Source: Haplodiscus bocki (lineage: Eukaryota). From it: a stretch of 64,000 nt of DNA. A model generated the notes under the pieces. The model had not been told where the DNA came from. It saw only the letters and a list, made by a program, of their open reading frames with translations, and made no database searches. The position numbers and the translations under genes are program-made. Each line of letters begins with the position of its first letter. The stretch's first letter is position 1. Shown in pieces: positions 15,086 to 32,700 of the stretch. The DNA lies in NCBI GenBank assembly GCA_965655095.1, contig OZ296649.1:4650001-4714000 (forward strand). Direction: 5' to 3'.

Positions 15086-16084
15086 CCTCTCCTTTCATGC
15101 ATTCATTTTTGATGGTCATGTAGTAGAACTTGGCTTTCGTCAGCAGACACTACATGTCCCTCTACATCAAATTAGCACCCTGTTGCTTTTCGTCTGCCAG
15201 CAAAAAATCAAAAGTTCTACATTTCTCTCTCAAAATTCAAAGACTCTAATATTTCTAAAAGAAATTGTCAAAATGCAGTTAGTGAGTGAGCACTGTATTG
15301 TTAGTGTGTTAATGGGCGCGCGCATCTTGCAACGTCTATTTTTGAAAAATTCAAGAACTTTAACAAAACGCGAACACGAATAATTCCGTGATTCCCTTCT
15401 TTACACACCGAAACAAATTAGACTAATGGCTTTCTGTAGCAGTGTATATTGTACCAAAAGAGTTCCTATAGGATGTCTGGGCACTGTGAAACAGAACTTT
15501 CACGAGAAAAAAACGTGGTGAAACCAAATTTTTGTCTCAGAAAAGCCACATTTTACCAAATACAAGGATCCCCATTGATAATTTGAGTCTTACGGGTGGC
15601 AGCGACTTGCCCGTACTGAGATCCCATGCAATACCATGCATGGTCATGGAATTCCCATTTTGCCATCTTGCCATGCAAGGGAATGTATGACCAAGCATGG
15701 CACATGCATCCATGTACGGGAGAACTACGTGTTCAAAAAGTGCCAGAGAAGAAAGATGTTCACAAAGAAAAAAATTATGTGCAAGAAACGGCTCCCCATA
15801 CTGAGACCCTAGCCACCAATGACCACCGCCACTTGTTAATCTGGCCGTCGATGGATCATTGATAGACATCTATGGAAATTATAAGCCTTCAAAGGGTCAG
15901 AACGCCATTAAACGCTACCAACTTCCTTTGTTCACAAAATACAAAAGTTACTAACGGGCTGAGATCCCATGTAATCCTATATATGAATCATAGGATCATC
16001 GAATTCAAAACATTTCAGTACAGTTAAAGTTATAAGTATGAAACCAATAAATACATATAAGAGCTGTCAAGTTCTAATATCATT

Positions 16085-16960
16085 AAAAGTATAGAAAATA
16101 ACGCACTTTCGACCCTTGCTTTAAAATCCGCTACTTTCGGTACTACTACTGCCTCTCGCAAAATCACAACAAATTTCAATAACTTCCGAAAAAAATTAAC
16201 GTCATTTTTTAGTATATTTTTTACGTTGTGTATATTCCCAAGTATGTTTTTTCGATGCTGCATACTTTCAAGCACGTTCCTTTGATTGTGTATAATTCCA
16301 CGTTTATATTTTTGCATTATGCACAGTTTCAAGCACGACTTTTACATTCAGTCTATTCTTTGCATTATACGAATTTTTAACCACGTTTTTTGGGTTGAGT
16401 ATTTTCTCATATACAATTTCCTTTTTGAGAGTAAAAGCATATAGACTCACCCCAAAATATTTTTACCATCGTCAACTAAATGAAAAACATGTATTCATTC
16501 ACAACCGTTCTAATTTTGCCTCCTCTGGCTTAGTAGTAATATCATCGACAAAAGTTGAGGCCTTAACCGGAATGTTTTGGGTTCATTGTTCAGGTAAGTC
16601 TTTGAGCTGCTTAACATCCCCCAGTCTTTGAAATATGCAATTGCTGTAGGAAGAAAATCACCAAACTCACAGCTCTTAAGAAGCATGATAGCTGCTGTGA
16701 AGGTACAAGTGGAACAGATTCCCGATGGGCCCATACTCCTACAATCTCGTTGAAAAACTGGGTTGGCCGGTAACAAAAATTTATCCACTTCATGCAAGAA
16801 AGACTTAACTACAACTTTGCTTCTAATGTTAACTGTTGCAATATTTTTTTCTGCTTCTCATCGGTATTTTCAACTTCAATCTTGTGTATTTTTTTCCCGT
16901 TTACTCGCAAATCTGCAACTTCTGCTGCTGATTTGTGTGTAGCATGGAATTGTAAAATAA
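16085..16960 (+). repeat. Left terminal inverted repeat of Polinton copy 2
   Basis: AAAAGTATAGAAAATA... aligns with the reverse complement of the right end (AGTAGTATAGAAAACA...); similarity extends through TCTGCTGCTGATTTGTGTGTAG. Confidence 0.88.
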
Positions 16961-28835: not shown

Positions 28836-29729
28836 CTTTTGTACGATTTCCTACTACACACAAATCAGCAGCAGAGAGTGCAGATTTGCGAGTATGTGGA
28901 ATAAAAATAATCATAAATATAAATGGAAAAAACGGAAAAAGAAGGAAAAAATTTGGCCATGGTTAACATTATAGGCAATTGTTTATTGTATTATTTTTTC
29001 ACGCTTGAAACAGAAAAAAAATTGTTACCAGCCGAACAAGATTTTTGAGCAAATTACAGCAGGTATCAGCCCGTCAGGACTCATTTCCACTTACACCTCC
29101 ACAGCAGCTGTAATGCTTTTTAAGAACTGTGAGTTTGGTGATTATCTTCCTACAGCAGGCGCCTATTTCAAAGACTGGGGACGTCAGGCTTACCGGAAGA
29201 ATAAAACCAAAACACTCCGGTTAAGGCCTGAACCGGTCAATGACATTATCACTAAGCTATAGGATGTAAAACTAGACTGGTTCTATTTGTATACTTGCTC
29301 TTAATTTAGTTGATGATGATAGAAGAATACCTTGGCGTAAGTGTATATGCATTCACTTTAAAAAAATGTGTATAAAATTAATAATCAACACAAAAAACGT
29401 GCATAAAAAGCTTATAATGCAAAAAAGAATTCCTGCTTGAAAAAGATCATAGTGCAAAAAATATACGTGGAAAGGTACACAACAGAAATGACCTGTATGA
29501 AAATGTGCATCAACGAAAAAGTATACGTTAAAATTTGCAAAACTCAAAAAATATACGTAACGTAAAAATTTAATAAAGTATGACGTTATATTATGTTTTG
29601 TGGGAGTTTTTTTTTGTATTGGTGTGATTTTCCTTTCGCGTTTTGGTGCGATTTGCGAAAAGTAGTAGTAGTATCGAAAATAGTGGATGTTAGAGGAAGG
29701 CTGAAACATCCGCTGTTTTCTATACTACT
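28836..29729 (-). repeat. Right terminal inverted repeat of Polinton copy 2
   Basis: Inverted homolog of 16085-16960, ending in ACTACT and followed by the TSD. Confidence 0.88.
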
Positions 29730-32700
29730 ATCATTTCCAAAAAAAAAAGGAAATTCATCCAGAATAATAAAAGAATCAACGTTTTTTTCTCGTGGATCTT
29801 CTGATTATATGAGAAAATGAGGTAATCGGATGACAAAGATCCATTCTGAGACAAAAGAAGCGTCTCAAGATTTGGCTCCATTTTTGCAGTAATTTTCTTC
29901 TGATGTGGTTCTCTCAAATTGCTTTTTCAAAGAAGTGAATGTGACACTTTTTGTCGATTTATCTGAAGATACATTTTGAAAGCCTTTGTTCCTGAAGTAT
30001 TTGCTTCGTTTCAACCTGCTGCGTAATTTGAAACTAATCTGGTACCCATATTCTCAGGATTGGTGGAGTTTGGCAATTTTGATTCCGGAATTCTTTTTCC
30101 GGAATATTTTATAGCAAAATTTCAAGCTAAACTGCATGAATTTTTTTTTCATTAGTCACTTCAAAAATTGTCGATTTCCACCGGTGGCTAGAAGTTTTCT
30201 ACCGGTGGACCATCGAGTTTCATTGATGAAAATTTGAATAACCTGCCCCTAACTGACCGGTGGCCAAATATTAACCATACATAGCTACCGGTGGGTTCGA
30301 TGGAATCACTATGGCTATCGATGAGATGCTATGGAGTCTCCGTACGGGCCAGAAATTGAAATAACGTATTCTGTATCGAAGTGGCGCGAAAGATTTGGAG
30401 AACTCAGTTATGTCTCGAAACTCGAGTATGAAATGGTTAATGCAGGTGCTGCGCCTCATAACTAATCCTATACCACCCAAATTACAACAATCGGACAAAC
30501 AAAAGTGAAGAAATTACTAAAACAACAAAGACCACCACTCTCAGAATGCATTAGTGAGTACAAGACGTCAACCCAGAATTTTTAGAAACCTACACAAAAT
30601 TTTTGACGCTATCTTTGTCTCAGAATGCATCTGGAGGCCAAATTTATGGCAAAGGAGAGCATGATCTTCCACAGCAAATTTTGGCCCTTACTACGTTTTT
30701 TGGGGAGATATTAGTTCTTACTGGAAATGGTTTTTGGAGTTTGACAGCTTTGATGTGAATTTTTGGTTTTAATAGTTTCAACTTTTTTGATATGTTGTGA
30801 ATTTAATATTTTCTTCCCTATTTCGTTTTCTGAGAATTAAAAAGCTGATTCCAGAGCGATTAAGTGTTCCCTAAGTTCTTATTCCCATTCAAGGTCCATG
30901 CAATCCCGTGCTTAAAATCGACATGGGCATGCAAGGGAATACATGAGATGTCAGTACGGGTAGACCGTTCCCGATGTTTAACTCGCCTCTACCTTTTTAA
31001 TTTTAGAAGTATATTGAAAATAGATACATGCTCAAATATGCATTGGCTACAAGACAAATATTTGGCTGATCGATCCATGTAAATGGAATGATCTTCAACT
31101 AAAATGCAGTGAGTGGGATGAACTTATTGGTGTCACAGAATGGGACATTTAGGTTTGTTAAGTTGTGCCAGTGTAAAAGTTGAAGGAGCTGAGTGACGTG
31201 TTCCTTTGCACTCATGTTTAGTTGTAAGTATGAAGCTCTTAGGCAAAGACAACAGTCAATTAGAAAAACGCTGGAAGGACTTGTATGGAGACATGTTGAT
31301 GATTATTTCGAGTGTTGGAGATACATTGATCAATCTCTTTGGAGATATTGTTGCAGAATATTGTTTGGCTTGCTATCCAATTAGGTAAAATTGGACAAGG
31401 GTTGCTAGAAATAATTCAAAGTTTTGGGCAAATGAAAGAATCTTCAATTACTATAGCTTTTATGATTTTGTAGCAATATTTTTTCAAGTGGCATGAATTT
31501 TCTTATGCTGCGTCAATGGCCGGGAATCAGCAACAACGCAAACGGAAAAAATAACGACTTCAAACTTTTTGCCTGCTAACAGGGATGACATTTACTCTCA
31601 TTAGTTCAAGTCACGCTTAAATGACGTAACTTTCATTGACGCGGGAATTAACACCCCCGAGAATCTGAATTAATATGTTGCCATTCAATGCAGACGCTGT
31701 AAGCTCAAATAGCTGAATGTATAGAGACTAAAAAATCCTACAATTTAAGTTCAGACACTTCATTTAATTTGGAACCCACACTACATCCCACTCCAATAAA
31801 TGTTCCCTTTTTCACTCCAAGTCATCTTAAGACCTTCATCCCCTTGACAATATTTTCAATGGAAAGTTCCAACAATAATCCTAAGCAGACATGTTCAAGG
31901 CTATCTCAGCTTCTCTGTTTTTCGCTAACCTCCCTCGATAAATGAAAATTGCATTTGCTGCTTGTTTTCAAAACACTTAATTATGAATCATTTGATGTCT
32001 TTACACAGCACTAGTAGCATTTGTGTTTTTAGGAAAAAACAATCAAATTGGAAAATCGAAAATGTGAGGAAAGGACTCAATGAGAAGCGGCTTGCGGATA
32101 GAAAAAAAACAAGTAGAACAGTAGAGAAAGAGGTGAAAATTTGCTCTTTTATTGTAGCTAAGAAGCCAAAAATTTCGACCCGCTCATCAGCTAGTTTTAC
32201 TTCTAGAATGTTGTTACTTAAACAGATATCGATGGCAAATCAAGAATCGATGAATTGACATTTGATTGGTTTAGCAATTTTTATCAATTGAGGAGATCCA
32301 TAGCCGGTTGATTAATATCTACTTCTTATTAAATTTTTTCTTACTTTTGAGAGACCTTTTCAGAAAATAGACTTCAGAATTTGATGTCGTCTGAAGTTCG
32401 AACAGGTCCAGCCCAGCTCAGATTTGGCGCACAATAAATGCAGTGTATTAACGGCAGTATCACTTTAAAAATCTTTACAACCAAGGAAAATGCGAACGGC
32501 TAAAAACACGATTCAGTTAGAAGTTAATTATGAACAGACGACGTATCAGTAACAAAAATAGTCTCCAAATAGTCTGAAAATTATGAAGAAGCAAGCCAAT
32601 AACAGCTCACAATCAGCTTTCTTTGTTTCTTTGGCTCTAAATAGTTTTGGATACTTGGATAACCTAAAAGAATTTGTTTTCTGTAGCTCGAAAAATTACG

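Follow-up and report, generated by a model that had tools for sequence, protein, structure and literature searches.

A 64,000-nucleotide stretch of contig OZ296649.1 (assembly GCA_965655095.1, positions 4,650,001 to 4,714,000 of the forward strand; hereafter, the window) contains a segment bounded by long inverted repeats, which raises the question of whether it holds a complete viral genome or the remains of one. A first-pass annotation described this element as a complete, ancient Polinton/adintovirus-like provirus that retains remnants of every hallmark gene, descends from a virion-competent ancestor, is datable, and would escape any annotation based on intact open reading frames (ORFs). 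The gene set of Polinton/Maverick elements (class Polintoviricetes) has been defined previously (PMC4028283, PMC11161782). Five features of these elements are found at this locus: a target-site duplication (TSD), long terminal inverted repeats (TIRs) with the corresponding end motif, a protein-primed family B polymerase (pPolB), an rve integrase, and a major capsid protein (MCP). Our analysis indicates that the element is probably a single Polinton/Maverick insertion of the pPolB-rve type, which decayed in place and was deleted internally. An old Polinton insertion with a TSD and long TIRs is thus borne out by its ends, by the divergence of its TIRs, and by the identities of three genes, and its completeness is not.

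The boundaries of the element can be read directly. The hexamer ATCATT stands on both sides (16079-16084 and 29730-29735, plus strand) and encloses 13,645 bp. The left TIR (16085-16964, plus strand, about 880 bp) starts with AAAAGT, and the right TIR (28832-29729, minus strand, about 900 bp, start approximate) ends with ACTACT; the left end of the element reads AAAAGTATAGAAAA, and the right end, on the minus strand, reads AGTAGTATAGAAAA. Mavericks have 6-bp TSDs and (AG)3 or (AGT)2 ends (PMC8097293), and the right end matches the canonical (AGT)2-type motif, from which the left end deviates at two of six positions. The first-pass annotation had reported the same flanking hexamer, the same ends (with AAAAGT as an eroded AGTAGT), and TIRs of about 880 bp that looked roughly 70 to 80% identical, and our analysis agrees with it on each point. 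The local alignment score is 408, compared with a mean of 23 ± 2 and a maximum of 31 in 200 shuffles, and three of four scoring schemes return 76.0 to 76.2% identity over 845 columns with about 20 gap events; the scheme with the cheapest gaps returns 79.6% (Jukes-Cantor [JC] distance of 0.24). Identity is uniform from end to end, at 72 to 79% in 150-column blocks, and beyond the TSD no inverted similarity remains, with the outer flanks scoring 93 (shuffle mean, 73; maximum, 117). A chance origin of the TSD was rejected on the basis that an exact 6-mer match arose in 11 of 20,000 random pairs. In summed contig depth, the bin at 28936-29599 of the right TIR lies at about 20 times the level of the element interior and part of the left TIR at about 3 times; part of the TIR sequence may be similar to a repeat that is more abundant.

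The predominant alignment corresponds to a JC distance of 0.29 ± 0.02, or about 0.145 substitutions per site per arm. This age is relative only and assumes that the arms started out identical and underwent no later mutual conversion. Conversion into years would require a host rate, and the element is datable in this relative, assumption-bound sense. The age would lose its meaning if the two ends belonged to different insertions that were joined by ectopic recombination or nesting, with the TSD arising by chance. Such a history would suit the presence of three diverged copies inside 64 kb and an internal duplication that resembles unequal crossover (both described below). However, the exact 6-bp repeat falls in the register set by the TIR alignment, and the TIR divergence lies below every between-copy distance (0.36 to 0.52) and agrees with the count of stops in the MCP gene, which leaves this explanation highly improbable.

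Direct Pfam scans covered whole frames, 63 ORFs, 14 gene-sized segments, and a further 12 segments from the sister copies. No family reached the cut-off in the frames, ORFs, or segments of the element or in those of the sister copies; within the element, the best match among the 63 ORFs had an E value of 0.006 and fell to unrelated families. PDB sequence searches returned nothing meaningful, and PHROGs searches of 13 window ORFs returned only families of unknown function at E values of 0.02 to 0.04. The gene identities therefore come through relatives (P0001-P0012, P0051-P0170, and L001, taken from ENA and JGI records), and the element would indeed be missed by ORF annotation; its longest stop-free stretch spans 123 codons. 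An intact relative with flanks was found in none of IMG/VR (four of four scans empty), GTDB, and the phage records, and a JGI metagenome search for one returned a single 1.7-kb contig.

The MCP gene persists at nearly full length as a pseudogene of the double-jelly-roll PF21738 family (24704-25890, plus strand), with 7 to 11 stops and 3 to 5 frameshifts depending on the reference. A 122-aa ORF at 24961 led to 12 related proteins, nine of which carry PF21738 (above the cut-off in P0007), and through them the double-jelly-roll capsid of Polintons is recognized here. Residues 19 to 416 of a 416-aa relative (P0010) align to the entire pseudogene with a score of 435 (shuffle maximum, 42), 11 stops, and 3 frameshifts, while the comparison with L001 counts 7 stops; MCP relatives are 35 to 37% identical across the pseudogene. 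The predicted structure of an MCP relative was unusable (pLDDT of 37). At a divergence of 0.145, we expect 8.1 stops in 380 codons, and 7 to 11 are observed, which suggests that the MCP gene was probably still whole when the element inserted and has decayed at the pace of the TIRs. Identity to the intact L001 at codon positions 1, 2, and 3 is 0.53, 0.63, and 0.48, a pattern that still bears the mark of purifying selection in the past.

Tail to tail with the MCP gene lies an rve-family integrase pseudogene on the minus strand (25890-26750, limits approximate). Its 87-aa ORF at 26565-26305 scores 0.94 in the ESM Atlas (recognition 3745), and 27 of 30 Atlas matches fall in rve-bearing clusters, with rve on 22%, 36%, and 77% of the members in the top three. 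The integrase-like C-terminus of L001 also matches 25943-26289 (E value of 2.8e-7). L001 (65-1740), a metagenome contig, encodes an intact MCP of 416 aa that lies tail to tail with the C-terminus of an integrase, an arrangement that it has in common with the element; in L001, this C-terminus is split into two frames. Direct Pfam and PDB searches of the element segments for an integrase returned no match.

The pPolB gene on the minus strand is about half deleted. Its frame led to 38 proteins, with PF03175 in 2 of the 19 scanned, and one further match led to 386 pPolB relatives; among the matches listed (120 of the 386), 25 are 1,040 aa or longer. These relatives reach 50 to 64 bits on PF03175, which identifies a protein-primed family B polymerase and is too little to give an adintovirus class. 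The core remnant (26838-27932, minus strand) corresponds to residues ~603 to 966 of a relative, with motifs A, B, and C recognizable, and aligns with a score of 377 (shuffle maximum, 48) and 38.5% identity. A profile of 22 relatives (1057 positions) matches positions 72 to 126 at 28111-27947 (E value of 1e-5), within a 5' stub at 27947-28290 (minus strand), and then leaps to positions 577 to 940; positions 127 to 576, about 450 codons, and those after ~940 are absent. In a sister copy within the window (copy C), the same profile extends from 18 to 1051. Both the profile and the comparison with copy C place the junction of the large deletion at 27927-27947 (minus strand), where 14.1-kb contigs from raw data span it. 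In nucleotides, 1,357 bp of copy C are missing at 27927-27937, and a further ~0.2 kb is absent from the 3' end, at 26696-26843. The large deletion corresponds to residues ~152 to 602 of P0066 and includes motif positions 320, 403, and 506, which we take to be Exo I, II, and III.

These gaps bear directly on whether the element is a complete provirus with every gene preserved end to end. As such a reading would have it, the element retains both termini and the TSD, and its genes follow the expected order. However, positions 127 to 576 of the pPolB profile are missing; the element lacks 1,357 bp, ~0.2 kb, and, in a penton-like gene, ~0.6 kb that the sister copies contain; it carries an internal duplication; and the raw-data contigs concur with the window at the gaps. 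We consider completeness as good as refuted.

Whether the element was already defective when it inserted is a separate matter, and the internal duplication is part of the evidence. A unit of ~0.6 kb is present twice at 20820-21971 (plus strand; halves at 20820-21415 and 21424-21971; score of 374, shuffle maximum of 177), where copy C has a single unit. The halves are 63% identical (JC distance of 0.51 ± 0.04) and lie 0.41 to 0.63 from copy C and another sister copy (copy A), as far as from each other. Since their distance exceeds that of the TIRs, the duplication is older than the TIR split and probably arrived with the parent. These distances are compatible with a recombinant parent, with a weak signal: the left part does not consistently favor copy A, as 19402-20117 lies at a JC distance of 0.36 from copy C and 19365-20417 at 0.43 from copy A. 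In a strand-by-strand tblastx comparison of the copies, sense could not be told from antisense. These viruses are commonly mosaic (bioRxiv 10.64898/2026.10.13.758929).

The element could thus have been a helper-dependent Polinton at insertion, a deletion derivative and possibly a two-parent recombinant that intact relatives replicated and integrated in trans. Besides the age of the duplication, this would account for the fact that the element retains both ends and an MCP gene decayed only as far as the TIRs, yet about 450 pPolB codons are gone. Against it, no second copy with the pPolB junction is known, the copies genome-wide not having been surveyed, and several scattered deletions are typical of long genomic residence. 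Furthermore, with 6 stops and 4 frameshifts over 314 aligned codons, the remnant of pPolB shows no excess of stops over the MCP gene (7 to 11 stops in ~380 codons), which fits deletion after insertion without proving it. We regard insertion in a defective state as unlikely. Slightly more doubtful is its fullest form, in which a recombinant element, with a duplicated module from two diverged parents and no exonuclease half of pPolB but with its ends, its integrase, and its capsid gene retained, inserted in a host lineage with a large Polinton radiation. In that case, the element would be the fossil remnant of a class of helper-dependent, defective-interfering-like Polintons that were replicated in trans.

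We favor a single insertion that decayed where it landed. A Polinton genome would have entered the host germline by means of its own retroviral-type rve integrase, generating the 6-bp duplication, as family knowledge and the observed TSD suggest. Immobile from then on, the element would have decayed neutrally, accumulating ~0.145 substitutions per site per arm along with stops and frameshifts in the alignable genes, and would have lost, by internal deletion, the exonuclease-bearing half of pPolB, some of the pPolB 3' end, and a portion of a penton-like gene. We infer that the capsid module was working at insertion and that the deletions came afterward. As for a virion-competent ancestor, the MCP stops make a working capsid module reasonable, and virion formation could be ascribed only to the parent. 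Today, the element is a dead copy from a family that invaded the genome repeatedly, and an ordinary fossil: a well-bounded, old, dead, partly deleted Polinton.

Several observations weigh against this account. No result dates the deletions, and they may precede the insertion. Lineage-specific differences at MCP codon position 2 amount to 62 of 229 (0.27), compared with 0.13 from the TIR clock; this excess could stem from earlier divergence or from noise in the alignment, but also from a TIR clock that runs short and underestimates the age. An empty-site joint was not found among the joints listed (15 of 763). In addition, no profile from Pfam, PHROGs, PDB, or the homolog searches confirmed the ATPase, protease, or penton. 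The hallmark genes claimed by the first-pass annotation accordingly divide into pPolB and MCP (identified through relatives) and the integrase (supported by the ESM Atlas), all three backed by tools, and the ATPase, protease, and penton, seen only as short motifs where the sequence matches the sister copies.

An assembly artifact as the cause of the decay was rejected, because raw-data contigs agree with the window. The 14.1-kb contigs from public runs match it with 11 to 18 other letters and 3 to 7 gaps, cross both the left junction and the deletion in pPolB, and have a depth like that of the flank contigs; 5.4-kb contigs span the right junction, also at a depth like that of the flanks. These contigs come from one study and two samples, with three of four runs from one sample, and possibly from the window's own source. 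Allelic differences or assembly errors may account for a few of the breaks, but the overall decay is real.

The remaining parts of the element are more eroded or less readily named. Inside the left TIR, the left arm (16965-18550) contains no recognized gene in the ORF Pfam scan, and nothing in it aligns collinearly with the sister copies. A probable adenain/Ulp1-like protease remnant follows at 18830-19090 (plus strand), marked by the motifs FFDSYG at 18961 and DSNCAA at 19064. Their spacing equals that of ILDSYG and ESYCGAY in copy A, which has the best-preserved protease-like motifs, and GTHW and DSYCGAY occur in copy C. Only copies A and C yielded a His motif; none was found in the element itself. 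We assume the motifs across the copies to be the His, Asp, and Cys motifs of an adenain-like protease of Polintons; Pfam and PDB searches with segments of the element and of the sister copies returned no protease match.

A conserved gene remnant at 19365-20440 (plus strand), 67 to 71% identical in nucleotides to copies A and C, is probably penton (minor capsid)-like and carries a D-L-stop-GE motif at 20402. A second penton-like remnant (20480-21000, plus strand) has a DFNGE motif and lacks ~0.6 kb at ~20630-20680 that is present in copies A and C. The two DFNGE-like C-termini suggest two penton-like genes, on the presumption that DFNGE is the C-terminal motif of Polinton pentons. Pfam and PHROGs searches of the ORFs and segments assigned no penton family, and the predicted structure of the penton-like ORF of copy A was unusable (pLDDT of 33). 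Farther right, a probable packaging ATPase remnant (22970-23500, plus strand) has an eroded Walker A at 22982, and GPSFSGKT is intact at the homologous place in copy C; we presume this to be the Walker A of the Polinton ATPase. The ATPase ORF of copy C scores 0.80 to 0.84 in the ESM Atlas, a lead below 0.9, and ATPase was found in 0 of 246 candidates of the homolog search and in none of the Pfam, PHROGs, and PDB searches.

The element shares the window with two further decayed Polintons, which lie at JC distances of 0.36 to 0.52 from it. Copy A (1-4010, minus strand) is partial and reversed, cut by the window start and by a 200-N gap at 524-723. Copy C (36130-47110, plus strand), recognized by profile and copy alignment, has the same gene order as the element and a near-full-length pPolB with 22 stops and 14 frameshifts relative to P0066, and an MCP is also present. 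TIRs of copies A and C were not found by alignment within the 64-kb window. A 200-N gap at 47859-48058 sits where the right end of copy C could be.

Other repeats occupy much of the surroundings. A decayed long terminal repeat (LTR) retrotransposon extends over ~50600-64000 (plus strand), with protease- and reverse transcriptase-like motifs visible by eye, no Pfam match, and a below-cut-off DUF1759 gag-like hit at 52172 (E value of 6.5e-4). An 81% direct repeat (50602-50810 and 63793-64000) may be its LTR pair. A very high-copy repeat family at ~13660-15100, with relatives at ~10930-12600 and ~50860-52090 and diverged copies on both strands, has a summed contig depth thousands of times the single-copy level. 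A tandem repeat of period 61 occupies 11975-12281 (5 copies; 98% at period 122), and a short diverged tandem array at 7752-8237 has an inverted relative at 35818-35941, just left of copy C.

Relative to known systems, the element resembles Polintons/Mavericks in its pPolB, rve integrase, double-jelly-roll major capsid gene, long TIRs, 6-bp TSD, and (AGT)2//(ACT)2-type end. Intact vertebrate Mavericks measure 12.7 to 24.6 kb with TIRs of 46 to 1,447 bp (PMC8097293), and the 13.6-kb element with its ~880-bp TIRs falls inside both ranges. Its gene order, with the capsid-side genes and MCP on the plus strand and pPolB and integrase on the minus strand, differs from the two-module order of vertebrates (PMC8097293). 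In contrast to intact Polintons, it retains no intact gene, its pPolB is half deleted, and stops, frameshifts, and deletions interrupt what would be a full ORF set; many database relatives keep long pPolB frames, whereas its own is broken. It also resembles the degraded Maverick "genomic fossils" described in the same report, given its stops, frameshifts, eroded ends, and other decayed copies alongside. Whereas 2,166 of those vertebrate loci had no discernible TIRs (PMC8097293), those of the element can still be read at 24% divergence, as can its TSD.

The element is also like the proposed adintoviruses (PMC8502044) in combining PolB, an rve integrase, and a hexon-like MCP, with adenain and FtsK-like ATPase probable, and in being endogenized and degraded. 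The N-terminal region that would hold the adintoviral OTU domain is largely deleted here. Degraded adintoviruses occur in many animal germlines, and such virion genes appear restricted to animals (PMC8502044), which would point to an animal host.

The significance of the element itself is modest, as one more eroded Polinton in the commonest state of such elements. Among 3,511 vertebrate Maverick loci, 96% are eroded (PMC8097293), and with two further decayed copies in the window, the element is thus not rare. Up to about 1,700 elements have been reported in one coral genome (PMC11131425), and partial Polinton remnants in nematodes (bioRxiv 10.1101/2024.01.15.575659). What the locus adds is a calibration point: the relative age of its TIRs agrees with an independent count of capsid stops, and TIR pairs may therefore serve as a Polinton clock, as LTR pairs do for retroviruses. 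The element further suggests that its host lineage is rich in Polintons. Were the pPolB deletion common to many copies, it would indicate defective Polintons mobilized in trans, and the locus would take on greater significance.

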